A stretch of 64,000 nucleotides of DNA, taken from the NCBI GenBank assembly GCA_963843795.1, contig CAWJLW010000006.1, forward strand, positions 992,001 through 1,056,000, written 5' to 3'. The notes under the pieces are model-generated. The model had not been told where the DNA came from, did not search any database, and saw nothing but the letters and a program-made list of their open reading frames with translations. The position numbers were made by a program, and so were the translations under genes. Origin of the DNA: an uncultured bacterium. GTDB taxonomy: Bacteria; Armatimonadota; Abditibacteriia; Abditibacteriales; Abditibacteriaceae. Positions 5,861-60,829 of the stretch are shown here, piece after piece. Position 1 is the first letter of the stretch; each line of letters begins with the position of its first letter.

Positions 5861-5864
5861 AGGC

Positions 5865-6776: not shown

Positions 6777-6850
6777 CGTTCCTCATAAACTGAAATTTTC
6801 GCTCTGCAAGTACTTGCAGAGCGCCTTGTGTTGGTTAACGAGGAGTTTGC

Positions 6851-9328
6851 ATGAAATTTATCATAGCCGCACTCACGCTTTGCTTGTGCTGTCTTTTCAC
6901 GTTCGCAAGTGATGCACAAACTGCCATCACCGCATCCATTGGCGATTTTATCACGCCAGTCGCAGCAACTGCCTCCAGCGCGCAAAGCGACGCTGGGCGT
7001 GTGGCAACGCGCTTGATCGATGGTTCGGGCTGGGCAGAAAGCGCGCCTGGCAGCGGCGTTTATCTGCATTCGTCCAACGTTTCCGAAGGCGGCGCTTCGA
7101 TGTGGAACGGCGAAATGAAATCCACCTTGAATTTCGATTTGGGTAAAGAATTTTCGACCAACGGCTCTTATATTTGGAACTACAACGAAGGCAACGGCTA
7201 CAATTCGCGCAGCGTGAAGCGGTTGAAAATTCTCAGTTCTTTAGACAATCAAACTTTCGCGCAGGTCGGAGATTTTACACTGGAAATGGCACCGGCTGAT
7301 AATAATTATCGCGGGCAAACCGTGAAGTTTGCCACGCCAGTTCGCGCGCGTTACTTTCGTTTTGAAATCGAGTCGAATTATCGCGGCAACGAACAGTCGG
7401 GCCTCAGCGAAGTGCGTTTCGCCAACGCGGAAAAAAAGTTCGTTCTCGAAAAGTCCAAACCGTGGCAAGCGACTTATCCGCTTCCGCAACACCCGAAATT
7501 GAAACTTGGACAGCCATTGAAGGGTGCGGAAAACGTGCGCTATCCCGACGATGCGGGTGTGATTGATGTCACCAAAGCGCCTTACTTCGCCAAAGGCGAT
7601 GGCGTCAGCGACGATACATTGGCGATTCAAAGGGCGCTGAATGATTATCCCGCTGACCTGGCGATTTTGTATTTCCCTAACGGCGTATATTTGATTTCCG
7701 ACACGCTGCGCTTTTCGCCTGATGACCGCGGTAAGGCCAAGCAAACCGTGTTGCAAGGCCAAAGCGAGCGCGGTGCGATCATTAAATTGCGCGATAATGC
7801 GCCCAGTTTTGGGTCGTCGCGTGCCACGCGCGCTCTGCTCAATACCGGCTACGCGCCAGCGCAGCGTTTCGGCAATGAAGTGCGCGACCTCACTTTCGAT
7901 ACGGGAATTGGCAACGCGGGCGCGACCGGCGTGCAGTTCATAGCCAATAATCAGGGCGGCATTTACAACGTCACGATTGTTTCGGGCGATGGGCAGGGTT
8001 TCGCTGGTCTCGACTTGGGCTACACCAATGAGCAAGGCCCGTGCTTGATTAAAAATTTGCGCGTGCAGGGCTTTGATACTGGCGTGCGTTTGGCGTTTGG
8101 CGTCGCTTCGGCCACGCTTGAACACATTACCGTCGAAGCGCAGAACAAATGGGGCGTGCGCAACGAAGGCCAGCCAATGACGCTGCGCGCTTTGAAATCG
8201 AAAAATGCAGTGCCCGCGCTGGCAGTTGTCGGTGGTTTCACGACTTTAATCGAAGCCGATTTGCAAGGTGTGGGCACTGCCAAAAATCAAGCCGCGATTG
8301 TTAGCGAATCGAACCTGATGGCGCGCGATGTGAAAACAAGTGGCTACGGAAGCGCCTTGAAATCGAATTTGCCTAACGTGAAGGGCGTGGAAGCCGCCAA
8401 TTTCGCGCAATGGCTGAGCAAACCGGTGACGCGCTTGTTTGCTGGCACGGGTGAAGGCTTGCGTTTACCGATTCGCGAGACGCCCGCTTCGCCGCGCGAA
8501 GCCGACGTTTTTAAATGGGTTTCCGTGACGAAGTTTGGCGCGATTGCCAACGATGGCAAAGACGACGCTCCCGCAATTCAGGCGGCAATTGACAGCGGTG
8601 CGCAGACAATCTACTTACCGCGCGGCCATTATGATATTGGCCAAACTATCGTGCTGCGCAGCAAGCTGCAATCGTTAATCGGTTGCAAAGCGTGGCTGCA
8701 AGTACTTGCACCGTTGATTGCAGCCAAAGCGCCGATGTTTCGCGTTGATGAGAACGGCGCGCCGCTGGTGGAAATGGATAACATCGACACCGATTTTTCA
8801 AGTGGCGAACATTTCTTTCTGGAAAACAACAGCGCGCGCACGCTGGTTTTGAGACGAATGCAAATCAACTTTCAAGGCGCGGATGCCTATCGTGGCAGTT
8901 CCAATGCCGACAAGAAGGGCACGGTTTTTCTGGAAGATGTGGTGGGGCGTTGGTTCCAGTTCAACAATCAAAACGTGTGGGCGCGCCAGTTCAATGTCGA
9001 GGGCGATGGCACGCACATTTCCAATAGTGGCGGGCAGATGTGGATTTTGGGCTACAAAACCGAAGGCTACGGCACGCTGCTGGAAACGCGCAATCGCGGC
9101 ATCAGCGAAGTATTGGGCGGTTTAAGTTATACGGTCGGCGATGAGCGTGATGAGCCGATGTTTGTGATCGACCAAAATTCTCGTGCTTCAATTTCGATTA
9201 GCGAAGTCAACTTCACCGGCAAGCCATTCGCGCGCGTCGTGCAGCAAACGCGCGCTGGAGAAACCAAAGTTTTGGTGCGCGACGATGCCGCTTGGCGGCG
9301 CGCTTTTACGTTGTTTGCGTCGAATTGA
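6851..9328 (+). CDS. Secreted Pectate_lyase_3/GH55-like beta-helix protein with N-terminal discoidin (F5/8)-like domain
   Basis: Signal peptide. Discoidin-like LNFDLGK...PVRARYFRFEI...GLSEVRF. Two AKGDGVSDDTLAIQRAL / GAIANDGKDDAPAIQAAI...YLPRGHY motifs. Confidence 0.8.
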   Translation: MKFIIAALTLCLCCLFTFASDAQTAITASIGDFITPVAATASSAQSDAGRVATRLIDGSGWAESAPGSGVYLHSSNVSEGGASMWNGEMKSTLNFDLGKEFSTNGSYIWNYNEGNGYNSRSVKRLKILSSLDNQTFAQVGDFTLEMAPADNNYRGQTVKFATPVRARYFRFEIESNYRGNEQSGLSEVRFANAEKKFVLEKSKPWQATYPLPQHPKLKLGQPLKGAENVRYPDDAGVIDVTKAPYFAKGDGVSDDTLAIQRALNDYPADLAILYFPNGVYLISDTLRFSPDDRGKAKQTVLQGQSERGAIIKLRDNAPSFGSSRATRALLNTGYAPAQRFGNEVRDLTFDTGIGNAGATGVQFIANNQGGIYNVTIVSGDGQGFAGLDLGYTNEQGPCLIKNLRVQGFDTGVRLAFGVASATLEHITVEAQNKWGVRNEGQPMTLRALKSKNAVPALAVVGGFTTLIEADLQGVGTAKNQAAIVSESNLMARDVKTSGYGSALKSNLPNVKGVEAANFAQWLSKPVTRLFAGTGEGLRLPIRETPASPREADVFKWVSVTKFGAIANDGKDDAPAIQAAIDSGAQTIYLPRGHYDIGQTIVLRSKLQSLIGCKAWLQVLAPLIAAKAPMFRVDENGAPLVEMDNIDTDFSSGEHFFLENNSARTLVLRRMQINFQGADAYRGSSNADKKGTVFLEDVVGRWFQFNNQNVWARQFNVEGDGTHISNSGGQMWILGYKTEGYGTLLETRNRGISEVLGGLSYTVGDERDEPMFVIDQNSRASISISEVNFTGKPFARVVQQTRAGETKVLVRDDAAWRRAFTLFASN

Positions 9329-9500
9329 AAAATAAAGCGACTGGTTGTCTGCTGGCTGAAAACGACGAGAAAAGGGCTTTGTATTGTGCTAAGTCGCCGC
9401 TACAATTGGCTACTTTGAGAGAAAACCAAGGTAATAGGAAATTTGAGCGGTGGCTCTGCGGGTACTTGCAGAGCACATTGAGAGAAATGAAAATCACTGC

Positions 9501-10853
9501 ATGAAACATATCTGGCTTTATCTCAATCACGACGACATCCGCACCGAACAACGCCAATGCGCCGAAGAAGGCCGCGATTTATCTTCGCTGGAAAATGAAT
9601 TCGAGCGCGTGCTCGCGCTTGATTTAGAAGATTTGGCGAATCAGCCCGCTGCGCAAGCTTTGCTCGATGCCACGATTCAATTGCCACAACGCGCCAATTA
9701 TCCGTATTACGAGCCGAACGATTTGGCAGAAATTCACAAAGCACGACCAGGAAATCGACCTCAACTCGAAGCATGGAATGGCGATAACACAGATTTGTTG
9801 AATCGATTGCACGGTGCGTGGACGGGGCGTTGTGTGGGTTGTTTGCTTGGGAAGCCGGTTGAAGGCTGGCGGCGACCGCGTATGTGGGGTTACTTAAAAG
9901 AATTAAATCGTTGGCCCTTGAATGATTTTTTTCGTTACGATGTGGCAACTCACGACGCGCGCGAAAAATACGAGTTGGACGGTTGGCACAAGCAGTTTTT
10001 TGCCGATCAAATTTCCTATATGCCCGAAGATGACGACACCAATTACACCATAACCGGTTTCGCGATTTTGGGTCGTTACGGGCGCGATTTCACGCCGAAT
10101 GACGTGGCCAATTTCTGGCTTCAGGAAATTCCGCTTTTGCATCTTTGCACCGCCGAACGCGTGGCGTATCGCAACTTTTCCCTGTTAATCGCGCCGCCAG
10201 CTTCGGCGAGCTTTCGCAATCCATATCGCGAATGGATCGGTGCGCAAATTCGCGCCGATTTTTGGGGCTACGCGTGTCCCGGCAATCCCGAAATCGCTGC
10301 GGATTTCGCGTGGCGCGACGCTTCGATTTCGCACGTCAAAAACGGCATTTACGGCGAAATGTGGGTGGCAGCGATGATCGCAGCGGCCTTTGTGTGCGAT
10401 GATGTGCGAACCATTATCGCAGCCGGTCTGGGCCAAATTCCCGAAAATTGTCGTTTGAGCGAAGACGTGAATTTGGTGTTGCATTGGCACGAGCAGGGCA
10501 TCGTTTACGATGAGGCCGTCGAGAAATTGCATGAAAAATGGGACGAAAATAGCGCTCACGATTGGTGCCACACGATTTCTAACGCGATGATTGTCGCGAT
10601 TGGATTGCTGTGGGGTGAAAATGATTTCGGAAAAACGATTTGCCGCGCCGTTCAGCCGTGCTTCGATACCGATTGCAATGGGGCGACGGTCGGTTCGATT
10701 CTGGGCATTATTCACGGGCAGAAAAATCTGCCCGCGCGTTGGGCCGAACAAATCAACGATACGCTGTACACCGGAGTTAGCGGTTATCATACTGTGAAAC
10801 TGGAACAAATGGCGCGCGAAAGTTTGGAAATTGTCCGCAAAATTGCCGCATGA
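9501..10853 (+). CDS. ADP-ribosylglycohydrolase family protein
   Basis: GAWTGRCVGCLLGKPVEG, PEDDDTNY, IGAQIRAD, SHVKNGIYG, DTDCNGATVGSILG. Start at ATG 9501. Confidence 0.88.
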   Translation: MKHIWLYLNHDDIRTEQRQCAEEGRDLSSLENEFERVLALDLEDLANQPAAQALLDATIQLPQRANYPYYEPNDLAEIHKARPGNRPQLEAWNGDNTDLLNRLHGAWTGRCVGCLLGKPVEGWRRPRMWGYLKELNRWPLNDFFRYDVATHDAREKYELDGWHKQFFADQISYMPEDDDTNYTITGFAILGRYGRDFTPNDVANFWLQEIPLLHLCTAERVAYRNFSLLIAPPASASFRNPYREWIGAQIRADFWGYACPGNPEIAADFAWRDASISHVKNGIYGEMWVAAMIAAAFVCDDVRTIIAAGLGQIPENCRLSEDVNLVLHWHEQGIVYDEAVEKLHEKWDENSAHDWCHTISNAMIVAIGLLWGENDFGKTICRAVQPCFDTDCNGATVGSILGIIHGQKNLPARWAEQINDTLYTGVSGYHTVKLEQMARESLEIVRKIAA

Positions 10854-10882
10854 GCGCGCTGCAAGTACTTGCAGGAATCTTT

Positions 10883-11911
10883 ATGAAATTCAATTTTCGT
10901 TGGGTGGCTGCGGTGTTGGGTTTGGGCTTTTCTCTGGCTCACAACGCAAACGGTCAAGAAACAAATTCGGAAGCCACGACAAAAGAACCAACGGTTTTGG
11001 ACAGCAAATTTTTCACCTACCGCTTGCAGCCACCGATTGGTTTGAGAGGGCATTACACGATTTTCACGCGCTTGAAAGTCACACAAAATTTGCCCGTAAC
11101 CTCCGCGAACGCGCAGCGCATGGAAACTCAGAGCGAGCAAACTTTTCTTATTGACTACGAAACGATTTCGCGCGATTTGCGCGGAGGCACGGTTTCGCGC
11201 CTGATTTATCGCACGCTCCGGCAAACTTCCACCACGAAAATTGATGGCAAATTTGTCCCTTCTAACGCTGCGCAGGCCAAAAAGTGGGAAAAATTATTCG
11301 ACGGCGTGCGCATCGATATCAAACAAGCTCCCGATGGCCGCGTGCTGAACGTGCAAGGTTTGACTGCGCTACGCCGCCGCCTCGACCGCGCTTCTTCCAC
11401 AAGCGACCCGTCTTCCAAAGCGCTGATAAAATCTATTTACAACAGCATTTTTAGTGAAAAAAATCTGCGTCAAACTTGGGACAATTCCGCGTTGTATCTC
11501 GCGAAACCGGTGCGTGTGGGCGATGGTTGGAATTATCTGGCTCCACTGGAAATGATGGGATTGAAAATAGATTTGCACGGCACGCGCCGCCTGATAGATT
11601 TGGATGCCGCGCACGCTACGATCAACGACCGAGCCAATCTCGATCTCAATGTTTTGCCAATGCCGGCATCAAAATCTGCATCCAATGCATCCCAAATTGT
11701 CGTGAATGGTAGCGGAACTACGAAAAGCAAGATTATCGTCAATCGCGAAACCGGCATGGAAACCGAGACTTTTGTTGACCTGCATTTGACGATGAAAACT
11801 AAAGTCAAAACTTTGAAAAACGGACGCATGCTCACAACCGAAATTCCGCAATGGTTGCTGATGCAATCGCACAGGGTGTTTGAAGCCAAGCCCAAAATCA
11901 GCCCATTTTGA
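10883..11911 (+). CDS. Secreted hypothetical protein (possibly DUF6263-like)
   Basis: Signal peptide MKFNFRWVAAVLGLGFSLAHNANGQ, then a beta-rich body with DGRVLNVQG and KPVRVGDGW. Family call is tentative. Confidence 0.6.
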   Translation: MKFNFRWVAAVLGLGFSLAHNANGQETNSEATTKEPTVLDSKFFTYRLQPPIGLRGHYTIFTRLKVTQNLPVTSANAQRMETQSEQTFLIDYETISRDLRGGTVSRLIYRTLRQTSTTKIDGKFVPSNAAQAKKWEKLFDGVRIDIKQAPDGRVLNVQGLTALRRRLDRASSTSDPSSKALIKSIYNSIFSEKNLRQTWDNSALYLAKPVRVGDGWNYLAPLEMMGLKIDLHGTRRLIDLDAAHATINDRANLDLNVLPMPASKSASNASQIVVNGSGTTKSKIIVNRETGMETETFVDLHLTMKTKVKTLKNGRMLTTEIPQWLLMQSHRVFEAKPKISPF

Positions 11912-11917
11912 AACTTC

Positions 11918-11961
11918 ACCGCACAAGTGCGCTGCAAGTACTTGCAGCGCACTTGTGCGGT
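11918..11961. repeat. 44-bp perfect palindrome centred on GCAAGTACTTGC
   Basis: ACCGCACAAGTGCGCTGCAAGT|ACTTGCAGCGCACTTGTGCGGT. Confidence 0.92.
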
Positions 11962-12002
11962 TCAAGTTGTCAGAACTATTCTTGCCGTAGTCTTTCAAAG
12001 TC

Positions 12003-14210
12003 ATGACAATGAACACTCGAACCGCGCGTGGACGCATCTCGATATTACTGCTTGGCGGGCTGATTTCTGGTGCGTTCGCTTCCGACGCTGGTGCCAATGG
12101 AATCGAATATGAAATCGATAATGGCGTTCTTCTGTCCAACGTGGACGCGACGTGTCCGATGATTTACGACAATGATTGGTGGTCGGATACGCCCGACAAA
12201 AATTATCTGTGGGCCAAAGCCAGCCTCGGTCAGGCCGATTTGCGTGCTAACATCGTGACGCGCGATTTGTGGGATTATCCAAAAGGCTATCTGTTCACTC
12301 TGCAACAAGGTTTGGATGATGCCGCTAAATCCATCGACATCGCACGGCGGAGTGGCCTGAAAAATATTCCCGATGCCGTTGCCGGTGCGAATGCCGTGTT
12401 CATGCGACCCGAAAGTGGACGCATCGAGGATACGGTTTTTACGCACAGTGCGGGCAGCGATTTAATTGTGCGCGCAGCGAAAAATGCCACGCCACAAAAA
12501 CCGCTGCTAATTTTCGTTGGCGGGCCACTGAATACGGTCGCAAATGCCTATCTGAGCGCGCCCGAAATCGCCACCAACCTCGTGGTGCTAATGACCGATT
12601 TGCAGGGCTACAACGGTCAGGATAAATGGGCAAATTATATCGTGGCCTCGCGCTGCAAACTGGTGAATTACGGCGCGCGAACTTGGTGGCCGCAGCGCCC
12701 GCAAACGCCCGTGATGCCTTTGGGGAGTTTCGAGCAACTGCCTCGCAGCGAAATGCGCGACGATATTTTTAAAATCGCCAAGAACTTCTGGGAGCGCAGC
12801 ACGCGCGCCGACAAGCCCGACCGCGATGATGGCTTCGCCGACGGCGCGCCAGTTTTCCTGGTCTTTGATCCACAGTGTTGGCGGCGCGTGCAAAAACAGC
12901 GCATCAACGGCGTTTTCGATGTGCAAGATGTGGAAGCCGCGCCCTACGACGTTTTAGACGCTCGCGAGCTGGATTACACCCGCATGGCGAACGAGTTTTT
13001 TCGCACTCTCAGCAACCCCGCATTGTATCAAAAGCCCGACAGCACCACCGCAAGTACCTGCAGGAAAAAACATTCCATGAACAAACTTTTTTCAGCTTTG
13101 TTCCTCGCAATTCCCCTTCTCGTCACGCGCGCTTTTGCCACCACTTATCAGGTTGGCCCGCAGCGCGAAATCAAAACGCTGGGCGCAATTGTTGAGCGGT
13201 TGCAAGCGGGCGACATCGCGGAAATTGATGCGGGCGTTTATCGCGAAGCCGTGAAAATTAGCGCGCAGGGCACGCGCGAAAAACCGATTACGATTCGTGG
13301 CGTTGGCGCGACGCGTCCGCTTTTTGATGCGGAAAATTTGGATGTCAGCGGCAAGGGCGCGGTTCCGCGTGCGATTGTTCAAATCGAAGGCGCGTATATT
13401 ACGCTGGAACATTTGGAATTTAAAAACGCGCGCAATGGGGAAAATGCAGCGGGAATTCGATTGCTCGATTCAACTGATGCGATGATTCGCGATTGCGTCG
13501 TGAGCGCTTGCGATATGGGCATTTTTGGTGGCGACCGCGAAACCGCGCTGATTGAAAATTGCCACGTTTTTGGCAATGGAACCGAGAAATTCAACGGCTA
13601 TTCGCACAATTTTTACATGCAAGGCAATCGCATCGTGGTGCGCGGCTGTTACATTCACGATGCTTTGTGGGGACAAAATTTCAAAAGTCGCGCGCACTAT
13701 AACGAGCTGTGGTGGAATTTGATTCGCGATTCCAACGAAGGAGAAATCGGTTTCGTCGATGCGAACGGCGAAACCGACCGGCCCAATAGCAACGCGCTGA
13801 TGGTCGGCAACACGGTGATGAGCAAAGCCGAGCGCACGGGAAACGGAGCGAAATTTGTGCTGTTTGGCAGCGAAATGCAAGCGCCCGCTGGCGGCGTACA
13901 TAACGGCACGTTGTTTTTGTTTCACAACACGTTCATTGCCGGTAACGAGCGTGTGAATTTCATTACGCTCGATGATCCGCAGGCGAAATTGGTGGCGCAG
14001 AATAATGTTTTTATAGGTAGCAAGAACATTTTGAATTTGGCGCGTCCAGCGGTTGCTGTGAGCGCGCAGCATAATCTTTTGCCCGCCGATGCGAATGTGC
14101 CGGAAAATTGGAGCCCTGAATTTGGCCACGAACTGCTTCAATATGTCGATGGCGAAGGCGTAACGCACACGCTGCAATTGGGGCCAAATGATGCCGAAAC
14201 CAAGCGCTGA
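12003..14210 (+). CDS. Apparent fusion of a nucleoside-hydrolase-like domain and a right-handed beta-helix protein (second signal peptide at 13077; probably two genes)
   Basis: IYDNDWWSDTPD and FVGGPLNTVANAYLSAPEI in the N-terminal half. Internal MNKLFSALFLAIPLLVTRAFATTYQVGP followed by parallel beta-helix repeats. Confidence 0.65.
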   Translation: MTMNTRTARGRISILLLGGLISGAFASDAGANGIEYEIDNGVLLSNVDATCPMIYDNDWWSDTPDKNYLWAKASLGQADLRANIVTRDLWDYPKGYLFTLQQGLDDAAKSIDIARRSGLKNIPDAVAGANAVFMRPESGRIEDTVFTHSAGSDLIVRAAKNATPQKPLLIFVGGPLNTVANAYLSAPEIATNLVVLMTDLQGYNGQDKWANYIVASRCKLVNYGARTWWPQRPQTPVMPLGSFEQLPRSEMRDDIFKIAKNFWERSTRADKPDRDDGFADGAPVFLVFDPQCWRRVQKQRINGVFDVQDVEAAPYDVLDARELDYTRMANEFFRTLSNPALYQKPDSTTASTCRKKHSMNKLFSALFLAIPLLVTRAFATTYQVGPQREIKTLGAIVERLQAGDIAEIDAGVYREAVKISAQGTREKPITIRGVGATRPLFDAENLDVSGKGAVPRAIVQIEGAYITLEHLEFKNARNGENAAGIRLLDSTDAMIRDCVVSACDMGIFGGDRETALIENCHVFGNGTEKFNGYSHNFYMQGNRIVVRGCYIHDALWGQNFKSRAHYNELWWNLIRDSNEGEIGFVDANGETDRPNSNALMVGNTVMSKAERTGNGAKFVLFGSEMQAPAGGVHNGTLFLFHNTFIAGNERVNFITLDDPQAKLVAQNNVFIGSKNILNLARPAVAVSAQHNLLPADANVPENWSPEFGHELLQYVDGEGVTHTLQLGPNDAETKR

Positions 14211-14242
14211 AAGCATGCAGCAAGTACTTGCTGCATGCTTTC
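14209..14242. repeat. 34-bp perfect palindrome centred on GCAAGTACTTGC (terminator-like)
   Basis: GAAAGCATGCAGCAAGT|ACTTGCTGCATGCTTTC. Confidence 0.9.
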
Positions 14243-14262
14243 GTTTCTCTGCAAATTAACTA

Positions 14263-15729
14263 ATGAAATTCAAGAAAACTCAATTTCTTCTCATCGCCGC
14301 GCTTTTTTCAAACGCAGCTTACGGACAAGAAATCAAACCCATCACGATTGATGTCGTGCCCGGCGCGCGCCAGAGTTTCGCTGGTTTCGGTGTCAGTACG
14401 GGCAACTGGGGCGGCGAATATCAGGCGCTACCTCGCGCGCGACAACAAGAATTATCGCGCTTGCTGTGGCACGATTTAAACGTCCAGATTTTTCGGATGT
14501 GGCTTAATACGTATGAATTTCGGCCCCACGCGGGCGCGCACGATTTGTCGCAATTCCGCAAAAATTATGTCGATTCGGGTTTGATTGCCGATGCCAAAGC
14601 TGAGGGAGTCACGACGCTTTTGCTGGCTCCCGATGGTTTGCCGGACGATATGAAAGAAAAAAATGCCGAAGGCAGTTGGCAGTTCAAAACCGGCAGTGAA
14701 GCCGATTACGCGAAATTGCTGGCCGAATTTATTCAACTATTGCATCAGGAAACCGGCGTGTTGTTGGACGCGACTGGCGTGCAGAACGAGCCGAATAACA
14801 ACGAGCGATTTTCGCCGCAGCAGATTGTCGAAGTCGTGAAAAACTTGCGGCGCGAATTGGATGCGCGCGGCTTGCAAAGCGTGAAAATCATCGCGCCCGA
14901 ACAAGCCAGCGTTGATGCCGTGATGCTCGAACAAACCGACGCGCTCAAAGCCGATGCAAACGCGTGGCAAGTACTTGCGGGCATCAGTTCGCATTCTTAT
15001 AACATGGCCGCGACCGAGCCAATCGCTGAACGAATTGCGGCGCCCGATGGTAGTAATCTGAAAGAATATTGGATGACCGAAGCCAGTGATAACGGTAGCG
15101 AAGAGGCTGGCAATGCGATGCGCGCGGCGAGCTTAGCGTCGCGTTTTCTTAACGATATGAACCATCGCGTCACGCACTGGATTCATTTTATCGGGCTGGA
15201 AGTTTCCGATCCCAAAGACAACGCCACGCGCATTATCGCTTATGAAGCCCAAACCGGAAAAGCGCAAATTTTCACCAAATATTGGTATTATCAGCAACTG
15301 AACCAAACTTTCGGCGTGGGCGCAAAATTTCGCGACAGCCAGAGCAGCTTGGATGGAGACATGACGTGGACTTATGGCGTCAAGCCGCACCTGACGGCTG
15401 CGGCTGCGCAAAATGCGGATGGCAGTTGGGGCATTGGTCTGGTCAATTTTACGGCAGACAGCTTTGCCGGTTTGCAAGGCTGGGCCGACGAAAAATGGAA
15501 TCGCGAGCAAAACGGTCACACGCCCGCGCAAACTTTTCGCGTGACCCTGCGCGTGCCAGAACTGAAAAATCGCGCTGCCGTGAAATTCACGGTGCAACGC
15601 AGCGATGCGATGAAAAAGAATGCGAGTTCAGGCGAAGTAACGATGCAGAATGGCGCCGTAGAATTGAATATCGCACCGCTGGAATTGGTGACGTTGCGCG
15701 AAGTGACAGCGAAAAAAGGAACGAAATGA
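14263..15729 (+). CDS. Secreted clan GH-A glycoside hydrolase (GH30-like)
   Basis: Signal peptide, RQSFAGFG, GVQNEP (acid/base), SSHSY, YWMTE (nucleophile). Confidence 0.75.
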   Translation: MKFKKTQFLLIAALFSNAAYGQEIKPITIDVVPGARQSFAGFGVSTGNWGGEYQALPRARQQELSRLLWHDLNVQIFRMWLNTYEFRPHAGAHDLSQFRKNYVDSGLIADAKAEGVTTLLLAPDGLPDDMKEKNAEGSWQFKTGSEADYAKLLAEFIQLLHQETGVLLDATGVQNEPNNNERFSPQQIVEVVKNLRRELDARGLQSVKIIAPEQASVDAVMLEQTDALKADANAWQVLAGISSHSYNMAATEPIAERIAAPDGSNLKEYWMTEASDNGSEEAGNAMRAASLASRFLNDMNHRVTHWIHFIGLEVSDPKDNATRIIAYEAQTGKAQIFTKYWYYQQLNQTFGVGAKFRDSQSSLDGDMTWTYGVKPHLTAAAAQNADGSWGIGLVNFTADSFAGLQGWADEKWNREQNGHTPAQTFRVTLRVPELKNRAAVKFTVQRSDAMKKNASSGEVTMQNGAVELNIAPLELVTLREVTAKKGTK

Positions 15730-51416: not shown

Positions 51417-52616
51417 TTAATCGACTGTGCTTTCCTGCGCCACGCGCTTAATGGCCGCGTCGCGCTCAGCTTGCGTCACTAGAAAAGTGTCGGGATCAAT
51501 TCCGACTAAAGCTTGCAGATCGTTGCCTTTTCCATACGAACCCAAAGCCGCAATCGCACGATCTTCGATGCCGTTTTCACGCAAAAATTTGACGACGTCG
51601 CGTTCTAAATTGGGCACATAAGTGCGCAGAAATTCGACTTCGCCCAAATTGGTCAATCCCTGAGGCACGATTTCAACGTCAACGCCTGCTGGAATTAATA
51701 GCGATTCGCCCCGGCGCGCGAAAGTTTCTTCGCCATTGCCACGGAACAAAGCCGCGCCGTTGATGACTGTGATGGTGTTGAAACGTGGAGCCTCGTCGGT
51801 GAATGTGAACGTTTTGAACGCGTTCCATTTTTCCAGCACGAAATAATTGCACGCGCAGCAAAAAGTGCGCTTCAAATCATCGGCTTCCAAAGTCACAGGT
51901 GGCACATTTTGGCGCGCTCCATTTTCATAAGTCGCGGCCTGCACCGCCAAAGTTTTGTGCTTCTCGGCGTCTTCGGGCGTAATTACGCCCGCTTCGACGA
52001 AACCGGCCCAATCCCAGCCAAAACCCGCATCCGAATTCTGCTGAATTTCAAAGACCAGATTGCCCTCATCCAGTGCATGCATCCGTCCGGCAGGCACAAA
52101 AAAGGTGTCTCCCGTTTCGGTGGGAATGAAGTTCATTACCGCGTCGTAGGTGTCGCCTTTTTCAATTGCTTCCGCGAATTTTTCGGGCGTTAGGTTCCAG
52201 GCCGAGCCGATGTAGGCTTGTGCGCCCGGATCAGCGCGCGCGATGTACCACGCTTCGGTTTTGCCCGGATCGCTCATGCCCAATTTGCGCGTGGTTTCGT
52301 CATCCGGATGCAAGTGCGCGGGTAGGCGCTTGTCGCAATCCAAGAATTTGAGCAAAAGCGGAAAATAATCGCCGTAGCGGTCGAAAACCTCGCTGCCCAC
52401 CAGCGCGCGCGCATCTTCTTGCATCAATTGGCGCAGGGTTTTTCCTCCATGCGGCCCATTGATAACGATGGATTGTTCCGGGCCGTGATCGGCGATTTCC
52501 CACGATTCTGCGATATCGCGGTCGCGCGGCATATGCTGCATTTCCAGCACTTCGACAAAACGTCGTCCGCCATAGGGATAAAATTTCAAAAACGGCTTAA
52601 ATTTCAAGGGATACAT
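51417..52616 (-). CDS. manA: Type I phosphomannose isomerase-like cupin
   Basis: AESWEI, FPLLLKFLD, HLHPDD, GKTEAWY, VPAGRMHA, EIQQNSD. Lies downstream of pgi. Confidence 0.75.
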   Translation of the reverse strand: MYPLKFKPFLKFYPYGGRRFVEVLEMQHMPRDRDIAESWEIADHGPEQSIVINGPHGGKTLRQLMQEDARALVGSEVFDRYGDYFPLLLKFLDCDKRLPAHLHPDDETTRKLGMSDPGKTEAWYIARADPGAQAYIGSAWNLTPEKFAEAIEKGDTYDAVMNFIPTETGDTFFVPAGRMHALDEGNLVFEIQQNSDAGFGWDWAGFVEAGVITPEDAEKHKTLAVQAATYENGARQNVPPVTLEADDLKRTFCCACNYFVLEKWNAFKTFTFTDEAPRFNTITVINGAALFRGNGEETFARRGESLLIPAGVDVEIVPQGLTNLGEVEFLRTYVPNLERDVVKFLRENGIEDRAIAALGSYGKGNDLQALVGIDPDTFLVTQAERDAAIKRVAQESTVD

Positions 52617-52641
52617 GGCAATGGAATTAAACGCAGGGCGT

Positions 52642-54249
52642 TTAATCTTGATTCTCCTTATCGTGGATTTTAATTTGATATTCGGCACCTGCGCCATGAC
52701 CTTCGCGCGTCAATTGGCCATTGACTTCTAAATGGCGCAAAATATGAAAAATGTCTTCGGCGCGTTCGGGCATTTGCAAGCGTTGCGCCAGTTCGTCTGC
52801 GGAAAAGCTGCGCGTGAATTCTTCTCGCAGCGCCCCTAGCACTTGATGCTGCAATTCGATGACTTGCTGCGCCGCCTTCTTGCCCGCTTCCACGCCCGGT
52901 TGATGATACGCGTTGATATTGACCAAATACGCATATAAGCCTACCGCACGTTCGTAAAGTGCAATCAAGCGGCCTACCGTGGGCGCATCGACAGTAAGCA
53001 CGGAAATCGTGAGGCTTTCACGCCCATTTTCATATAATGCTGTGCGTGTACCGTAAAGAAAGCCGGACAAAAAATCGCCGCTGCTGGTATCGGGTTCAAC
53101 TTCGATGCGCGAACTCGAATCGCGCCGTGCTTGTAGCACTTCGATGAAGGTCACAAAGAAATTCGCCACGCCCTCGCGCAACTGTTGCACATACGCGTGC
53201 TGATCGGTCGAACCTTTGTTGCCGTAAACCGCGATGCCCTGATGCACAATATTTCCGTCCAAATCGCGTTCCTTGCCCAACGATTCCATTACTAACTGCT
53301 GCAAATAACGCGCGAACAATTCCAAGCGATCTTTATACGGCAAAATTACCATATCTTTCTCGCCCCGCCCGTTCGTCGCGTGATACCAACTCGCCGCCAG
53401 CAGCGCGGCTGGATTGTCTTGGGTGGTGCGATTGCGCGTCACTTCGTCCATTGCGCTCGCGCCCATCAGCATGCCTTCGATATCGAAACCTTGCAACGCG
53501 GCGGGCAAAAGTCCAACTGCCGAAAGCTCGGAGGTGCGGCCACCGACCCAATCGAACATGGGAAATCGTTGGAGCCAGCGCTCGTTTTCTGCCACGTTGT
53601 CCAGCTTGCTGCCGCGTTCGGTAATGGCGACCGTGTGACGGCCAAAGTGCAAGCCCATCTCGTGATAAGCGGATTGTGCTTCAAGCATCGCGTTTCGAGT
53701 TTCTTTGGTGCCACCGCTTTTGGAAATTACAATCGTCAGCGTTTGCGCTAAGCCATCGCCCAGACGCGCTAAAGTGCGCTCGATGCCGTCGGGGTCGGTG
53801 TTGTCGAGAAAATAAACCGCCATTTTGTCGGTTTCGGGATTAGAAAGAGCTTGCGTGACGAATTGCGGGCCCAGTGCGCTACCACCGATGCCAATGAGCA
53901 GCAAGTTGCGAAAACGGTCGCCGCGTTCGGGAATGATGTCGCCATCGTGAATCTGCTGTGCAAATTCTTGAATATCTTTAAGCACATTACGAATCTGCGC
54001 GCTGATGCGACCGGGCGCGATCTCAGGCGCGCGCAGCCAGTAATGGCCGACCATACGATTTTCGTCGGGGTTGGCGATGGCACCGTTTTCCAGTTCGGCC
54101 ATCTTTTCGTAAGCATTTTGTAATTTTGGTTCGATTTCCGCCCAGAAATTGTCGGGGAAATTCAAACGCGAAATATCGACGCTGATATCCAATATGTCAT
54201 TGAAATAGGTCGTTTTCTGGTATCGTTGCCACAATTCCGTTGCCTTCAT
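52642..54249 (-). CDS. pgi: Glucose-6-phosphate isomerase
   Basis: [48 protein letters not shown]. Confidence 0.97.
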
Positions 54250-54326
54250 TGCTATCCTTTTCTCACCAATTTTCGCCTCGACAAGTGTGACCTAATTCGC
54301 TCAGGCGCGCAGACACGAAACGTGTC

Positions 54327-54355
54327 TTGACGTGAGGAGTTGAAAACGGTATAAT
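54327..54355 (+). promoter_or_regulatory. Sigma70-type promoter of tRNA-Leu
   Basis: TTGACG (54327-54332), 17-bp spacer, TATAAT (54350-54355). Confidence 0.8.
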
Positions 54356-54378
54356 TTTTGTTCGCTGTCTCAACAGGC

Positions 54379-54461
54379 GCGCGAGTGGCGGAATGGCAGA
54401 CGCGCTAGATTCAGGTTCTAGTGCCCGCAAGGGCGTGGAGGTTCAAGTCCTCTCTCGCGCA
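54379..54461 (+). tRNA. tRNA-Leu (anticodon CAG)
   Basis: Acceptor stem GCGCGAG/CTCGCGC, D-arm TGGCGGAATGGCAGACGC, anticodon arm CTAGA-TTCAGGT-TCTAG, long variable arm GCCCGCAAGGGC, T-loop GGTTCAAGTCC. Followed by ATCCA, so CCA is not directly encoded. Confidence 0.96.
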
Positions 54462-54464
54462 TCC

Positions 54465-54500
54465 AAAAACCCGAACATCAATTCGATGTTCGGGTTTTTT
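54465..54500. terminator. Bidirectional intrinsic terminator after the tRNA
   Basis: AAAAACCCGAACATC-AATTC-GATGTTCGGGTTTTTT. Confidence 0.85.
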
Positions 54501-55428
54501 CGTGCCAATTTTTTACATTCTCAATTGTGCAATCCAATGCTCGTTTTCTTGATTGTGGCGAAGCCCAGCCCAAATGTGGCGTGATGATACAATTGGGCGC
54601 GCTCAAAAGGGGATTGTCACGCGGCGGCGGTTCGCTGCTCAGCACGTCGGCAGCATAACCGGCAATTTTTTCGTCCTGCAAGTACTTGCACAGCACATTT
54701 TCATCCACTAACGCGCCGCGCGCCGTATTAATCAAAAACGCCGTCGCTTTCATCCAACTCAAACGTTCATCGTTCATCAAATGCCGCGTTTGTTCAGTCG
54801 CCGGACAATGCAACGAAACCACATCGGCACGCTGTAAACCTTCTTTTAATTCCACGCGCGGCCATTGATTTTTGGGAGCGCCCTCGCGTCCCGGCAGAAT
54901 GCCTGCAAGTACTTGCATTCCAAACGCGCGCGCGATTTCGCCCACGCGATTGCCGATATTGCCGGTTCCCAACAGCAACAAAGTTTGGCCGCTGAGTTCA
55001 ACCAGCGGAAATTTCCAAAACGAAAAATATTTTGCGTTCGACCACGCACCTTCGCGCACCATTTCTGAATGTGCGCCACAATGATGCGTCAATTCCAGCA
55101 ACAACGCCCACGTTGTTTGCGCGGTAAATTCGCTCGAATAGCTCGGCACATTCGCCACTTCAATGCCGCGTTCCGCAGTGATTTCCAAATCAATGTTATC
55201 GGTTCCCGTCGCCGTCACTGCGATCATTTTTAACTGCGGCGCGGCATCGAATTGTTCGCTCCGCAGCTGGCATTTATTGGTGATAACAACATCGGCTTCT
55301 CTGATGCGTGCAAGTACTTGCGGCGCATCCGAACGCGCAAAAACTTCGATTTCGCCCAACGATTTCAGCGCGTCCCAATCGCGTTCATTATCGCTGAGCG
55401 GCGAGGCATCCAAGACGACGATTTTCAT
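54478..55428 (-). CDS. D-2-hydroxyacid dehydrogenase (glycerate dehydrogenase/hydroxypyruvate reductase-like)
   Basis: MKIVVLD start at 55428, [34 protein letters not shown]. Confidence 0.9.
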
Positions 55429-56676
55429 GCGCCCGTCCATTTTACAGCTTTCAAGCGCTTGCGCGACTTCGAGGGCGTTGGCGCGCGAATTAAACGCCGA
55501 AATGCGGAAAAAGCCTTCGCCTTGTTTGCCAAAACCCGAACCTGGCGTAATTACCACATTTGCTTCATCAAGCATTTTGTCGAACACGTCCCAACTGCTC
55601 AAACCTTGCGGCGCTTGCACCCAGATATACGGCGCGTGCTCGCCGCCCCATGTTTGCAAGCCGCAGTTCTGCGCCGCTTCGCGCAAGATTTTTGCGTTCG
55701 TCCATGTAGCCATCGACCAAATCACGAACCTGCTTTTTGCCCGCTTCGGAATACAACGCTTCTGCCGCGCGCTGCACCGGATAAGAAACGCCATTAAATT
55801 TTGTCGTCGAGCGGCGCAACCACAGCGGATGCAGCGGCACTTTTTCGCCATCGGCTTTCTGTCCCATCAAGGTTTTGGGCACAACGGTAAAAGCGCAGCG
55901 CACGCCGGTAAAGCCGCCATTTTTCGAGAACGAGCGGAATTCAATCGCGCACTCGCGCGCGCCTTCGATTTCGTAAATCGAGCGCGGCAAATCGGGGTCG
56001 GAGATGTAATCGCCATAGGCCGCATCGAAAAACAAAATCGTGTCGTTTTCGCAGCGCATAATCGACCCATTCTTTGCAGCTGCGCTTTGGTCGCGACTGC
56101 GCCGGTCGGATTGTTGGGAAAACACAAATAAGCGATGTCCACTTTTTGCTGCGGCGGCGATGCGATGAAATCGTTTTCGGGCGTGCAGGGCAGATAAACC
56201 AAACCCTCATAAGCGCCGCCTTCATCGGCCGCGCCGGTGTGGCCGGCCATCACGTTGGTATCCACATAAACCGGATAAACCGGATCGGTGATGGCGATGG
56301 TGTTGTCATTGCCGAAAATATCGAGAATGTTGGCGGTGTCGCATTTGGAGCCATCGGAGACGAAAATCTCGTCATCGGCGATTTCCAAACCGCGCGCGCG
56401 ATATTCGTTTTCGGCGATAGCTTCGCGCAGAAATTCGTAGCCTTGTTCCGGCCCATAGCCGCGAAAAGTGCCGCGCTGCCCAGTTCATCGGTCAGCATTT
56501 TTCAGCGCGTCAATGGCGGCCTGTGGCAGCGGTTCGGTGACATCGCCGATGCCGCAGCGAATGATGTTGTCGGCGGCATCGGGGTTAGCGGCAGCAAATT
56601 CTTTGACGCGGCGCGCGATTTCGGGGAACAGATAACCGGCTTTGAGCTTAAGATAATTTTCGTTGATAGTAGCCAT
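55425..56676 (-). pseudogene. dapL: LL-diaminopimelate aminotransferase, broken by about 6 single-base indels (probably sequencing errors)
   Basis: [76 protein letters not shown], spread over four ORF fragments. Confidence 0.88.
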
Positions 56677-56697
56677 AAAATTGAATGCTGAAACACA

Positions 56698-56735
56698 AAA
56701 TAAAGCGCGAAGCAGATTGGCTTCGCGCTTTATTT
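56698..56735. terminator. Hairpin sharing its core with the 43932 hairpin
   Basis: AAATAAAGCGCGAAGC-AGATTG-GCTTCGCGCTTTATTT. Confidence 0.75.
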
Positions 56736-56766
56736 AATTTATCAAATTCGTTACGGCTGCGGGCTT

Positions 56767-58095
56767 TTAATTGGATTCTCCTGCCACCAGATCGCCATTG
56801 GCTTTCTCTGTGCCTAACGTAGAACCGCCTTCGGGTTCCATCGGCACGCCGCCGTCATCAGAGCCATCAGGGCCGACGCTGTAAAGCATGAATTTTTGAC
56901 CTTGTTTTTGATAAATCAGTGGCGCGTTGGGCGCAAACGGATCGAGCGGCACCCCTTTGAGAAATTGAGGCACCAATTGATTCAAAGATTGCGGGTATTG
57001 ACCGGTGGCTTTGCTAAAGGCTTGCAAGGCCAGCGCGGTCAGCAGCAAACGATTTTCGGCGCGATTTTTTTCGTAATTCAAACGCATACGCGCCAAATTA
57101 GCGCTTCCCGCCAGCAATGCGCTCAGCGGGTCGGCGGCGTCGGGCAACCGCAGCAAATTGGGCGCATAAGGTTCTTGGGCACGCGCGATGTCGGCGTCCA
57201 ATTTGGCTACTAAATTGGCTTCGATCTGCGCATCGGAAGTTTTGCGAAGTTGCTTCTCCCAACCGTCTGTTTTGAAAGCTCTGCTCCAACTGTTCGGCTG
57301 GCCCGCGCGGAATTTCTTCCATTCGGCGTCTTGAAATATTCCCCGCAAGCTGGCCAGCGCGAGCCATTTTTCTTCGCTTTCGATGGCCATCAATTCGGTG
57401 TGCGCGGCTTCGATTCGCTCCAAACGTTGCGCAGCGCGCATTGCTTGCGTCGCAGTCAGATTTTTGCGCCAATGCGCCAATTCTGTACGACCAATTTGTT
57501 CGATGGCAATGCCGACCAGCATATTCATGTGAACCGCGCCATTCTGTATCACCGCGCCGATTTCTATCGCGTCCAAAGCGCTTTGGGTTGCCGCGTTAAA
57601 GTCGCCCGCGTCCGCTTGAACGCGCGCTCGTTCGGTCGCGGCGCGGCCCAAACTGCGCAGTTGCGCGTGATACATTGTGGTGCCCATCAAAGAGCGTTGC
57701 AGCGGTGCCACGATGGGAAGTTGCAACGCTTTTTTCATCAGTTGCAGCGCGCCAGCGTTCTTCGCGACGTGCGCCTTTTGCAAAGCAATGGAACTGTTGG
57801 GCGGCAATTCGGGTTGCAGATTTTTGCCTGCTTGCACCAGCAAATCGTACCCGTTAACTTTGGGGCGCTGCGGATTGGGAATCGCAATGGGTTGCTTAAT
57901 CAACGGTGCTGGTGTCGCGATGATGCGCGGCGGTGCGGGCGTGGGAATAATCGTTGGCTGCGCCGCAGGAGGCGACGTTGGAGCGGGTTGCGCGCTTTGA
58001 GGTGCGCTCGAATGACAGCCCGCGAAATATACCGGCGCGAGAAGACCAAAAGTCATCTGCAAGTACTTGCGAGACGAAAAGGGTGAAGTTTTCAT
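56767..58095 (-). CDS. Lipoprotein with a C-terminal GspG/pseudopilin-like motif (paralog 1)
   Basis: Lipobox FAGC, Pro-rich linker, YPQSLNQLVPQFLKGVPLDPFA...LYSVGPDGSDDGG. Confidence 0.75.
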   Translation of the reverse strand: MKTSPFSSRKYLQMTFGLLAPVYFAGCHSSAPQSAQPAPTSPPAAQPTIIPTPAPPRIIATPAPLIKQPIAIPNPQRPKVNGYDLLVQAGKNLQPELPPNSSIALQKAHVAKNAGALQLMKKALQLPIVAPLQRSLMGTTMYHAQLRSLGRAATERARVQADAGDFNAATQSALDAIEIGAVIQNGAVHMNMLVGIAIEQIGRTELAHWRKNLTATQAMRAAQRLERIEAAHTELMAIESEEKWLALASLRGIFQDAEWKKFRAGQPNSWSRAFKTDGWEKQLRKTSDAQIEANLVAKLDADIARAQEPYAPNLLRLPDAADPLSALLAGSANLARMRLNYEKNRAENRLLLTALALQAFSKATGQYPQSLNQLVPQFLKGVPLDPFAPNAPLIYQKQGQKFMLYSVGPDGSDDGGVPMEPEGGSTLGTEKANGDLVAGESN

Positions 58096-58100
58096 GCTGA

Positions 58101-59489
58101 TTATTCGCGTCCATCGCGCAAGACACCGTAGCCAAATACGATATCGTCGAGCGTTTTTTCGTAAATATTGATGTTGACAATCGGCGCGCCGCCGTTATCA
58201 ATCGCGTCCGGCCCGACGCTGTATAAAACGTAATTATCGCCATTGGGCCGATAATGCAGCGGCAGTTCGGGCGCGAACGGATCGCGCGGAACCTGCGGCA
58301 AGTACTTGCCGCACAATTCGTCCAAAGTTTGGGGAAATTTGCCGTTCTCTTTGTTGAAGGCTTGCAGCGCAAATGCGGTCATCAGCAAGCGATGCAGTGC
58401 GAAATTCTTTGTTCTCGTCATCACGTAGCGATTCAAGCCGTTAATCTTGCCGGAGCTTGTGTAAATCGAAGTCAGATAATCGCTGAATGGGTCGGCAGCG
58501 GGCGCTATTTCTTTGACTTTACGACTGAAAGGCAATTGGGATTGCGCGATGGCTTTATCCATGGTGTCGAGATAATTGCGCTGAATTTGGCTATCAGAAA
58601 ACGTGCGGGTTTTCTTGACGGCTTCGGGCGTGCGAAGAAATTGTCCCATACTTTTTGGATCGCCAGCACGGAATTTCGTCCAATTGTCGCGCATCATAAG
58701 TTGCTGCAATTCCACTAATCCATCCCATTTCGCTTCGGGCGTAACGGCAGAAAACTCGGCCATGCGCTTTTCCAAACTTTCCATGCGTTTGGCGGCGTTC
58801 AATGCGGTTTGCGCATCGCATTTGTTCACCCATTGCGGCATATCTTTGTAACCGTAACTTTGAATCGCTGTGGCGACCAAAGAACCAATCGCGTTGCCAC
58901 CGTTTTGTAATTCAGTTCCCATCTGCACAATGTCCAGAGCGCCATTGATGGCTTCATTCCATTGCTTATCGGCGGCATAAACTCGATTGCGCTGCGTCAT
59001 CAAGCGCATCAGCGAACGCAATTTGGCGTAAGGCGGTTCGGTCGCGTAGAGGCCACGCGCGGACGGGACCATTATTGGCAATTGCAAACCTTGCTGAACT
59101 AAATCAAGCGAACGGGCATTTTTCGCCGTGAACGAACGCTGCCGCTTCAAATCTTCTTCAGGCGACAATTTTTCCATCGCATCCGGCGAGCCTTCGCCGC
59201 CTTGTTGAATGCTTTGCGCGGCTCGCACCAGCAAATCGTAGCCATTGAGCTTGGGCAAATCGACTTTGGGAGCCGGAAATTCTGTGGCGAATTTCGAAAT
59301 ATCGGGCGGCGTTGGCGTGGGACGCAGCGCAATTGCGGGCGTTTTGGCTGGTTGTCGCGCTGCGGACTGACGCGGAATCAAAGCCGGTTCGGCTGGCGTT
59401 GCGGAATTGCAGCCTGCGAAAATTGTGGGCGCGAGAAAGCAAAAACTGAAGTGCAAGTACTTGCGGGACGATGAAGCAAAGCGTGGCAT
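58101..59489 (-). CDS. Lipoprotein with a C-terminal GspG/pseudopilin-like motif (paralog 2)
   Basis: Lipobox FAGC, NGYDLLVRAA shared with its neighbour, FPQTLDELCGKYLPQVPRDPFA...LYSVGPDAIDNGG. Start placed at ATG 59489. Confidence 0.75.
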   Translation of the reverse strand: MPRFASSSRKYLHFSFCFLAPTIFAGCNSATPAEPALIPRQSAARQPAKTPAIALRPTPTPPDISKFATEFPAPKVDLPKLNGYDLLVRAAQSIQQGGEGSPDAMEKLSPEEDLKRQRSFTAKNARSLDLVQQGLQLPIMVPSARGLYATEPPYAKLRSLMRLMTQRNRVYAADKQWNEAINGALDIVQMGTELQNGGNAIGSLVATAIQSYGYKDMPQWVNKCDAQTALNAAKRMESLEKRMAEFSAVTPEAKWDGLVELQQLMMRDNWTKFRAGDPKSMGQFLRTPEAVKKTRTFSDSQIQRNYLDTMDKAIAQSQLPFSRKVKEIAPAADPFSDYLTSIYTSSGKINGLNRYVMTRTKNFALHRLLMTAFALQAFNKENGKFPQTLDELCGKYLPQVPRDPFAPELPLHYRPNGDNYVLYSVGPDAIDNGGAPIVNINIYEKTLDDIVFGYGVLRDGRE

Positions 59490-59647
59490 GAAAAGTTTCC
59501 TTTCGAGGGTTTTATCGACAACACCTGATTTGGGGTGCATCCATTATAACCGACAATTGGCGCATTTTCGGTGGCGAAAGTCGGGACGAAAACTCCAAAA
59601 GCCACCTGCAAGTACTTGCAAGTGGCTTTTCGGGACGAAAATTCGGG

Positions 59648-60550
59648 TTACATTTTCAGGGTTTTGAGATCGATTTCGCCAGTGAAAGCGGTTGTCGCGG
59701 GGCCGGTCATATAAACGTGGTCATTATCGGCCCAGTCGATTTCCAGATCGCCACCGGGCAAATGCACCAGCGCGCGGCGTTTCTCGGCGGGCAACTTTCC
59801 GTTCAAGGCCGCTGCGACCGTCACCGCGCACGCGCCGCTGCCACACGCCAAAGTGTCACCTGCGCCCCGTTCCCATGTGCGCATCCACAGTTTATGCGGG
59901 CCGATAACCTTCACGAAATGCACGTTGGTACGCGCGGGAAACATTTCGTGATGTTCAATGGCGAAACCCAGCTCTTTCAAGGGCACCGATTCAACATCAT
60001 CGACAAAAATGACGACGTGCGGATTGCCCATGGAAACTGCTGTGATGCGGAACTCTTCGCCCTCGACATGCAGCGTTTCATTAATCACATGATGATCGTG
60101 GCCGTTGCCTTCGAGCGAGGCCATCGGAATTTGCGAACGCTGCAAGCGCGGCGCACCCATATCGACGCGCACGCGCAAATCGCGCGCGCCACGCTTTCCG
60201 GCATCTAAAATTTCAACGCTTTGCAAACCTTGCGTGGTCGCGACCGAAACGCTTTGCGCATCGACGTGGCCATTATCATATAAGTATTTGGCGAAACAAC
60301 GAATGCCATTGCCGCACATTTCGCTTTCGCTGCCATCGGGATTGAACATCCGCATTCGATAATCGGCGTGCTCGTCGGGCAGAATCAGAATCACGCCATC
60401 GGCACCAACGCCAAAATGACGAATGCAGACCGCTTCGCTGAACGATTCCAAATGCTCGGTCGGAATGGGTTCTCCTTCAAGGCAATCGATCATCACAAAA
60501 TCGTTGCCCAAACCGTGCATTTTGATAAATTTGACAGTGTCAGTTTTCAT
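59648..60550 (-). CDS. dapF: Diaminopimelate epimerase
   Basis: KMHGLGNDF, GVGADG, NPDGSESEMCGNG, SMGNPH, ERGAGDTLACGSG. Confidence 0.97.
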   Translation of the reverse strand: MKTDTVKFIKMHGLGNDFVMIDCLEGEPIPTEHLESFSEAVCIRHFGVGADGVILILPDEHADYRMRMFNPDGSESEMCGNGIRCFAKYLYDNGHVDAQSVSVATTQGLQSVEILDAGKRGARDLRVRVDMGAPRLQRSQIPMASLEGNGHDHHVINETLHVEGEEFRITAVSMGNPHVVIFVDDVESVPLKELGFAIEHHEMFPARTNVHFVKVIGPHKLWMRTWERGAGDTLACGSGACAVTVAAALNGKLPAEKRRALVHLPGGDLEIDWADNDHVYMTGPATTAFTGEIDLKTLKM

Positions 60551-60586
60551 GATTTGAATTTTGAGTAGTCACTTGAGGCGCTTGCT

Positions 60587-60733
60587 TTAGCGATGGCTGA
60601 GCCAGAAGGCGACGAACGCCATGAATCCGCCAGCACCGCCAACCAGTGCGATCAAGAACAGAAAATTTTTCAAGCCTTCAATGACTTCATCGTCATACCA
60701 ATCGTTTTTGCTTTCGCGTAGAAATTTGAACAT
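60587..60733 (-). CDS. Small single-pass membrane protein (48 aa), below the ORF-track cutoff
   Basis: MFKFLRESKNDWYDDEVIEGLKNFLFLIALVGGAGGFMAFVAFWLSHR*, with GAGGG upstream. Fills the gap upstream of dapF. Confidence 0.65.
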   Translation of the reverse strand: MFKFLRESKNDWYDDEVIEGLKNFLFLIALVGGAGGFMAFVAFWLSHR

Positions 60734-60799
60734 AACTTAAAACCCTCGCAACCAAATTACCCCAAACATTTTAACGCGAAACCAAAGCCGTGCGCACAA

Positions 60800-60829
60800 A
60801 AACGCCCTGCAAGTACTTGCAGGGCGTTT
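60800..60829. repeat. 30-bp perfect palindrome centred on GCAAGTACTTGC (terminator-like)
   Basis: AAACGCCCTGCAAGT|ACTTGCAGGGCGTTT. Confidence 0.88.

Follow-up and report, generated by a model that had tools for sequence, protein, structure and literature searches.

The 64,000-nt window analysed here (positions 992,001 to 1,056,000 of contig CAWJLW010000006.1, assembly GCA_963843795.1, from an uncultured bacterium of the family Abditibacteriaceae) contains nine perfect palindromes without a spacer, each centred on the 12-mer GCAAGTACTTGC (hereafter, the word). These palindromes are real, genome-wide and unusual in scale, and are explained largely by known parts, namely intrinsic terminators, a tag resembling the DNA uptake sequence (DUS) or the highly iterated palindrome (HIP), and template switching. 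The best explanation overall, which we consider probable, is that the word stands at the terminator tip and that the arms around it were perfected and lengthened by general template switching, with no word-specific enzyme.

Genome-wide distribution and terminator anatomy

The genome (G000; 4.30 Mb, 11 contigs, 92% complete) carries 2,567 copies of the word, and copies with perfect symmetry of at least 28 bp around it were defined as long palindromes (499 copies, 28-78 bp). Best hits of its Lon and of a methyltransferase pointed to an Abditibacteriaceae-like lineage. The length of perfect symmetry was bimodal, declining from 12 to 28 bp and reaching a second peak at 32-36 bp, with a maximum of 78 bp. 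Intergenic copies made up 71% of the total, and 490 of these 1,815 were long, against 6.1 expected when right flanks were shuffled among sites; 7 of the 745 coding copies were long. Sorted by junction, long palindromes were found at 182/287 convergent, 288/1,262 tandem and 20/266 divergent copies (7.8, 2.9 and 0.2, respectively, in the shuffles), in classes that carry some error because they rest on gene calls by our own script, and their centres lay at a median of 29-35 nt past the stop codon.

Perfect-stem, T-tailed hairpins were then counted at 3,394 gene ends, and the 579 obtained contained the word (401), a degenerate form of it (58) or neither (120); in 378 of the 401 the word was at the apex with a hairpin spacer of 0. 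The features of intrinsic terminators were present (GC-rich stem, small loop and U-tract), and the sites lay just after stop codons, except for the 20 divergent and 7 coding ones. At tandem sites the longer T-run was located downstream on the sense strand (92 vs 59, p=0.009), and G-U mismatches outnumbered A-C mismatches (45 vs 22 pooled, p=0.007; 27 vs 15 in word-bearing hairpins, p=0.09). A terminator role is supported by this position and anatomy, and the long palindromes are likely to be the ordinary intrinsic terminators of the genome, as predicted from sequence. Loss of Rho as a cause was rejected, rho being found in 5/5.

Copies of the word were evenly distributed along the chromosome, both within and between genes, and from their flat density along the 3.6-Mb contig a replication-related bias (matS- or SlmA-like) was rejected. 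The longest word-free stretches (G000 C6:56010-82495, 517680-543429 and 3600000-3623414) contained transposase-, restriction- and type IV secretion-like genes, and the last 23 kb of this contig (3600000-3623414), with 67% GC, may be foreign or misjoined. The tetrapeptide QVLA occurred 562 times in the proteome, where 38 occurrences were expected; this excess is due to the word, whose codons encode 499 of the 562.

In the window itself, where the word has 42 copies and an Rfam search returned one tRNA only, the features were as follows.

6800..6823, unstranded: 24-bp palindrome between divergent genes, with no gene 3′ end; probably no terminator
11918..11961, plus strand: 44-bp palindrome between same-strand genes, with a weak U-tract; the hairpin may stabilise the mRNA or partly terminate it
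14209..14242, plus strand: 34-bp palindrome beginning within the upstream stop codon, with a U-rich sense-strand tail; predicted terminator
17303..17354, unstranded: 52-bp palindrome that fills the whole interval between the stop codons of two convergent genes; predicted bidirectional terminator
28205..28242, minus strand: 38-bp palindrome 3′ of lon, with a sense-strand U-tract; predicted terminator
31006..31039, minus strand: 34-bp palindrome in the clpX/lon spacer; predicted terminator, with a bare 12-mer at 30977-30988
36800..36835, unstranded: 36-bp palindrome between convergent genes; predicted bidirectional terminator
51354..51403, unstranded: 50-bp palindrome at a convergent junction; the final 9 nt of an antiporter gene lie in the left arm and are mirrored in the right, past the T-run
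60800..60829, minus strand: 30-bp palindrome 5′ of dapF, with a sense-strand U-tract; predicted terminator
720..62831, unstranded: 33 more copies of the 12-mer, with symmetry of 12-20 bp; 17 are coding
43932..43973, unstranded: internal control, a terminator-like hairpin without the motif, of equal size and with a 2-nt spacer
33523..33556, minus strand: internal control, a terminator-like hairpin without the motif, with an 8-nt loop

All nine zero-spacer palindromes claimed in an earlier sequence-only reading were confirmed exactly, with GCAAGTACTTGC at each centre. Its term "loop-less" describes the DNA symmetry only, since a GUAC tetraloop was formed in 11/11 folded RNA strands (9 sites), and its term "bidirectional terminators" suits only some sites, since 3 of the 9 are convergent (17303, 36800 and 51354), 5 tandem and 1 divergent (6800). 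The gene start at window 32780-32955, which has dozens of paralogues family-wide, is probably a prepilin-type N-terminus, judging from the aligned residues.

Arms, flanks and the origin of symmetry

The sequence-only reading had held that the sites have no more than the central 12-14 bp in common and that the arms differ everywhere; the arms were instead variants of one consensus, AG(C/G/A)GCGC followed by a T-run, although full arms were distinct in 430 of the 499 palindromes and 273 distinct 10-nt arms were counted among 437. A T-run lay in the arm of 402 of 492 long non-coding palindromes, 6-8 nt from the word in 361 of the 402 and exactly 7 nt in 229. The modal arm, AGCGCGC, accounted for 49 of these 229 7-nt arms (30 expected under independence), and AGCGCGCTTT was the start of 45/437 arms. 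The flank bias AG(C/G/A)GCGC-n-TTT was detected on each side of the word in coding copies as well, with T-runs 7-11 nt out (TTT in coding copies, 0.195 vs 0.099), left and right flanks there being independent (linkage p=0.70) and a second T peak lying about 10 bp further out. Because coding copies show the same bias, the shared look of the arms is best read as an extended half-site of the word rather than as a sign of mobile-unit ancestry.

Such a mobile unit, resembling the repetitive extragenic palindrome (REP), would be 34 bp long (A4-GCGCGCT-word-AGCGCGC-T4) and would have spread before its arms diverged in concert; the excess of the modal arm over independence, the true fixed-arm 24-bp REP-like palindrome starting AGTAC in the relative G006, and one Y1_Tnp match are consistent with it. 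It is very unlikely, however, given that coding copies arose without insertion (a relative was missing at least 3 aa at just 3 of 67 sites), that 12/93 coding sites coincide with the dialect of the relative G009 (0.1 expected), that the 10-nt arms are so diverse, and that the Y1_Tnp match covers only part of the domain and has restriction-modification-like genes around it. Shared fixed arms of the ordinary REP kind, which the sequence-only reading had named as a finding that would refute it, were not found, the arms sharing a degenerate consensus only.

The same flank bias and second T peak could instead reflect binding sites with no terminator role, if a dimeric protein bound best to a complete 34-bp site with an A-tract at either side, a site that the long palindromes would match most closely; that divergent sites share the anatomy and that the strand bias is weak speak for this. 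Preference for a consensus predicts near-consensus arms, however, and not the site-specific mirrors counted above (490 vs 6.1 shuffled), and the strong preference for convergent ends and the similar motif-free hairpins also render this quite unlikely.

Motif-free hairpins of G000 provided a control. Their median span was 35 bp (36 bp in word-bearing hairpins), the RNA stem had a median of 11 in both (means 11.0 vs 11.7, p=0.011), and extension of at least 4 bp beyond the T-run was seen in 21/55 motif-free and 72/232 word-bearing hairpins (p=0.34). Arm lengths thus match those of non-motif terminators of the same genome, one of the findings by which the sequence-only reading had said it would be refuted, and this counts against a motif-specific arm maker. 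Since motif-free spans had medians of 34-35.5 bp in relatives and 28 bp in E. coli (300 kb, 22 hairpins) and outgroups (1.1 Mb, 14 hairpins), the geometry is family-wide.

Selection on termination alone does not account for several patterns of symmetry. Symmetry of at least 8 bp beyond the T-run was found in 31/232 hairpins, where the geometric expectation is about 0.003 per 110, and symmetric pairs beyond the T-run contained 1 break in 542. Single breaks numbered 50/2,763 in pairs 1-9 and 2/921 further out, and arm pairs 7-9 alone held 18/921 against the same outer 2/921 (p=4e-4); past the palindrome end, symmetry was not resumed (9 vs 9.7 by shuffle). In motif-free hairpins, RNA-loop positions were complementary in 50/68 cases, where base composition predicts 0.41; the counts were 2/10 in E. 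coli, 0/9 in outgroups and 3/7 in G009. General template switching probably keeps the arms symmetric, and the local arm copying proposed earlier is therefore retained, on indirect signs, as a general process; as a motif-specific nick or hairpin-capped break it is not.

In that motif-specific form, nicking or stalling at the word would set off copying of one flank to the other side, the products being kept as terminators. Coding-internal copies with symmetry of 20-28 bp do exceed expectation (28 vs 10.5), a small excess that may reflect a word-linked effect; divergent copies are long more often than expected (20/266 vs 0.2), 5/401 arms mirror at least 6 nt of a gene end, and symmetry ends abruptly. 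Adjacent word-word doublets (13, mainly at long-palindrome centres) point the same way, although plain tandem duplication of a palindrome predicts them too. Motif-free hairpins extend equally, however, the fixed arm length of 6-8 nt fits selection, the triplication signature is absent (4 vs 2.5 of 127), and searches for Y1_Tnp, GIY-YIG and protelomerase found no dedicated nuclease, which makes fold-back triggered by the word unlikely.

The enzyme searches covered the 92% complete genome. No protelomerase was found and no small GIY-YIG (Ssn-type) nuclease, GIY-YIG matches occurring only in frames of 450 and 672 aa; of the HUH/RAYT or protelomerase genes proposed as candidates, the search yielded only the one weak, partial Y1_Tnp match. 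With these results and only 7/745 coding copies of at least 28 bp, there is no support for a nick or hairpin-capped break specific to the motif. The presence of sbcCD, also raised earlier, was verified (sbcD with an adjacent sbcC-like gene of 1,057 aa), and the supposed paradox of palindromes being unstable under SbcCD is weak, the longest being only 78 bp. The danger threshold for SbcCD is roughly 150-200 bp. A study of the enzyme (PMC4245961) reportedly employed a 460-bp palindrome. No length threshold for SbcCD is given in the available part of PMC7999016.

A number of observations weigh against the preferred explanation. Unmirrored single changes in the core outnumber symmetric doubles (65 vs 3), so copying through the apex would be slow or rare, and selection at the stem base accounts for pairs 10-13, which limits the copy-back component. 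A cruder mismatch count gave G-U 27 vs A-C 24; among long tandem sites, 57/288 have no U-tract on either strand and 34 have it on the antisense strand only; the 20 divergent long palindromes share the same anatomy; and, with T-runs within the flank bias of the word itself, part of the terminator-like anatomy comes with the word. The word of G009 is far rarer at the apex (about 2% vs 19% of sites). The assembly is error-prone (17/289 long genes look frameshifted), and a share of the inner breaks may stem from this. Finally, no before/after pair was seen among the contigs of run X1 (near-identical DNA at low depth, not independent and possibly the source) or within-genome paralogues, 16 paralogous pairs including none with a palindrome of at least 28 bp, and orthologous gene ends in G009 (1.34 of 3.8 Mb) were too diverged for such states. 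At G000/G009 orthologous ends the word lay near both without significant linkage (p=0.13), and two such ends had word-centred palindromes in both genomes with different arms.

The gene mutS (G000 C6:2528840-2529392) appears frameshifted. A mutator state through this break was considered and set aside, as the break is probably an assembly error because the 17/289 genes also look frameshifted. An origin of the symmetry itself in base-calling or consensus building is scarcely credible: such errors do occur in this assembly and, among the contigs listed, no run X1 contig bridges a long palindrome, but against an artefact stand the equivalent palindromes that separately assembled G001 and G009 build on different core words, the tie of position to gene ends and the survival of 65 asymmetric cores.

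Terminator tips perfected by general template switching would arise as follows. Some protein would recognise the word as DNA, and the word would thereby be retained. When transcribed, it is predicted to form four stem pairs and a GUAC loop from either strand, and its two flanks to give the GC stem and the U-tract, so that gene ends would be its best fit. Selection on RNA pairing would preserve the GC stem, and fold-back copying between the arms would clear outer mismatches and carry the symmetry beyond the T-run, a pattern that motif-free hairpins share.

Relatives, dialects and other palindromes

Exact GCAAGTACTTGC was found at 0-3 copies in each of 40 relatives, and the degenerate word RAGTACTY at 2,695-4,371 copies in 6 of 28 genomes of the order and 0-117 in the other 22. 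Dialects were recognised in sampled DNA (CAAAGTACTTTG in G001, TCGAGTACTCGA in G009 and CGAGTACTCG in G012), those of G015 and G019 being similar to TCGAGTACTCGA (few kb sampled), and apex-centred palindromes built on their own dialect words occur in G001 (26-60 bp) and G009 (21/1,083 sites). The exact coincidence of 12/93 G000 coding sites with the G009 dialect (0.1 expected) suggests an ancestral, maintained signal, though the six word-rich genomes were not grouped in FastTree trees of ComEC (26 rows) or ClpX (18 rows); in a V-L control the counts were 9/19 vs 37/554 (p=3e-6; p=0.12 when conditioned on R-V-L).

An orphan N6/N4 methyltransferase (in G000, C6:2517365-2518135) was found in 22/28 genomes of the order (all 6 word-rich and 16 word-poor) and was rejected as the cause of the word, as it also occurs in word-poor genomes and GTAC avoidance matches it only partly. 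GTAC was almost absent in sampled loci of G005 (0 vs 28 expected), G008, G013, G014 (3 vs 50), G018, G022, G024 and G041, and near normal in G010, G021 and G023, all without the methyltransferase; G002, G016 and G025 break the pattern.

Other palindromes were noted in passing. G006 (L122, L206-L209) has a fixed-arm 24-bp palindrome, AGTACGGTCGA-WW-TCGACCGTACT, with 108 half-site matches in 100 kb and no AGTACT word. In G000, four perfect palindromes of 28-58 bp lie within 200 bp (C4:10127-10330), with a common GGTATATATACC-type centre beside resolvase- and ParA-like genes, and are possibly the origin of an integrated element. The palindrome at G000 C6:3512716-3512751, which we take to be parS-like, also stands at the apex of a terminator-like hairpin, and the 3.5-3.6 Mb bin, at the turn of GC skew, contains five parS-like words. 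Outside this phylum, a Chloroflexota contig (L059) offers a parallel, with four perfect zero-spacer palindromes of 72-82 bp in 15 kb (264-343, 1341-1412, 8311-8386 and 9526-9607), which share GGGGTTTT ends and a C-run/G-run centre and differ in the middle.

Comparison with known systems

In bidirectional intrinsic terminators an A-tract, a GC stem, a 4-nt loop and a U-tract follow the stop codons, and the layout is the same here. The span in this genome (34-36 bp) differs from that of E. coli terminators (28 bp), as does the recurrence of a single apex sequence in 69% of perfect-stem hairpins. This layout, one word at about seven of ten perfect-stem hairpin tips, was not found in the papers searched on HIP, DUS, template switching or lineage repeats, and the exact word had no match there.

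Like the present word, the DUS of Neisseriaceae and the uptake signal sequence (USS) of Pasteurellaceae are, in the accessible text of PMC3630211, words of 10-12 bases that occur in thousands of copies, with lineage dialects and a fixed core. As far as the sources available describe them, both also resemble the present word in occupying permissive coding positions in a favoured frame, in being used heavily in terminators and in being scarce where insertion sequences abound. Its even spread, thousands of copies, fixed-core dialects and in-place origin by substitution in coding sequence, at permissive and partly conserved positions, are features of this type. About half of uptake sequences lie within predicted terminators, according to the part of bioRxiv 10.1101/2025.10.24.684340 at hand. 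In a DUS terminator two inverted copies make the stem, whereas here one self-palindromic copy makes apex and loop; overlapping dyad DUS pairs are described in Simonsiella and Kingella (both in the same portion of PMC3630211). The word could be an independent signal for uptake or self-recognition, the third after those of these two families, that primed fold-back and so rebuilt most terminators around itself; it would seed terminators because it is its own mirror image, its 12 self-pairing bases priming fold-back replication by which a favoured flank would become a complete stem. We regard this as conceivable but doubtful; comEC, present in 28/28 genomes whether word-rich or not, does not discriminate.

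HIP1 and the alternate HIPs of cyanobacteria are likewise self-palindromic and very abundant, with genome-specific palindromic extensions and replacement between lineages (available portion of PMC4390886, in whose main text the string "terminat" is absent). Unlike HIP1, the present word is 12 bp long, has an AGTACT core and is 71% intergenic. The orphan methyltransferase, a possible parallel to HIP1, is present in all 6 word-rich genomes and also in 16 word-poor ones. Many short intergenic palindromes also characterise the REP/RAYT system. The same is described for Ssn/NTS in the part of PMC11893778 consulted, and intergenic palindromes are common among bacteria (PMC4060949, as far as available). 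Unlike both systems, this genome has no fixed arms, mostly bare 12-mers, 745 copies in genes without insertion and no small GIY-YIG.

In quasipalindrome correction, imperfect inverted repeats turn perfect and arms evolve in concert, as described in the accessible parts of PMC5941160 and PMC7202029, and the arms here are alike. Unlike the cases described there, about 500 natural sites share one apex, and these hairpins, with their fixed geometry, form a natural test set for template switching against selection in keeping inverted repeats perfect.

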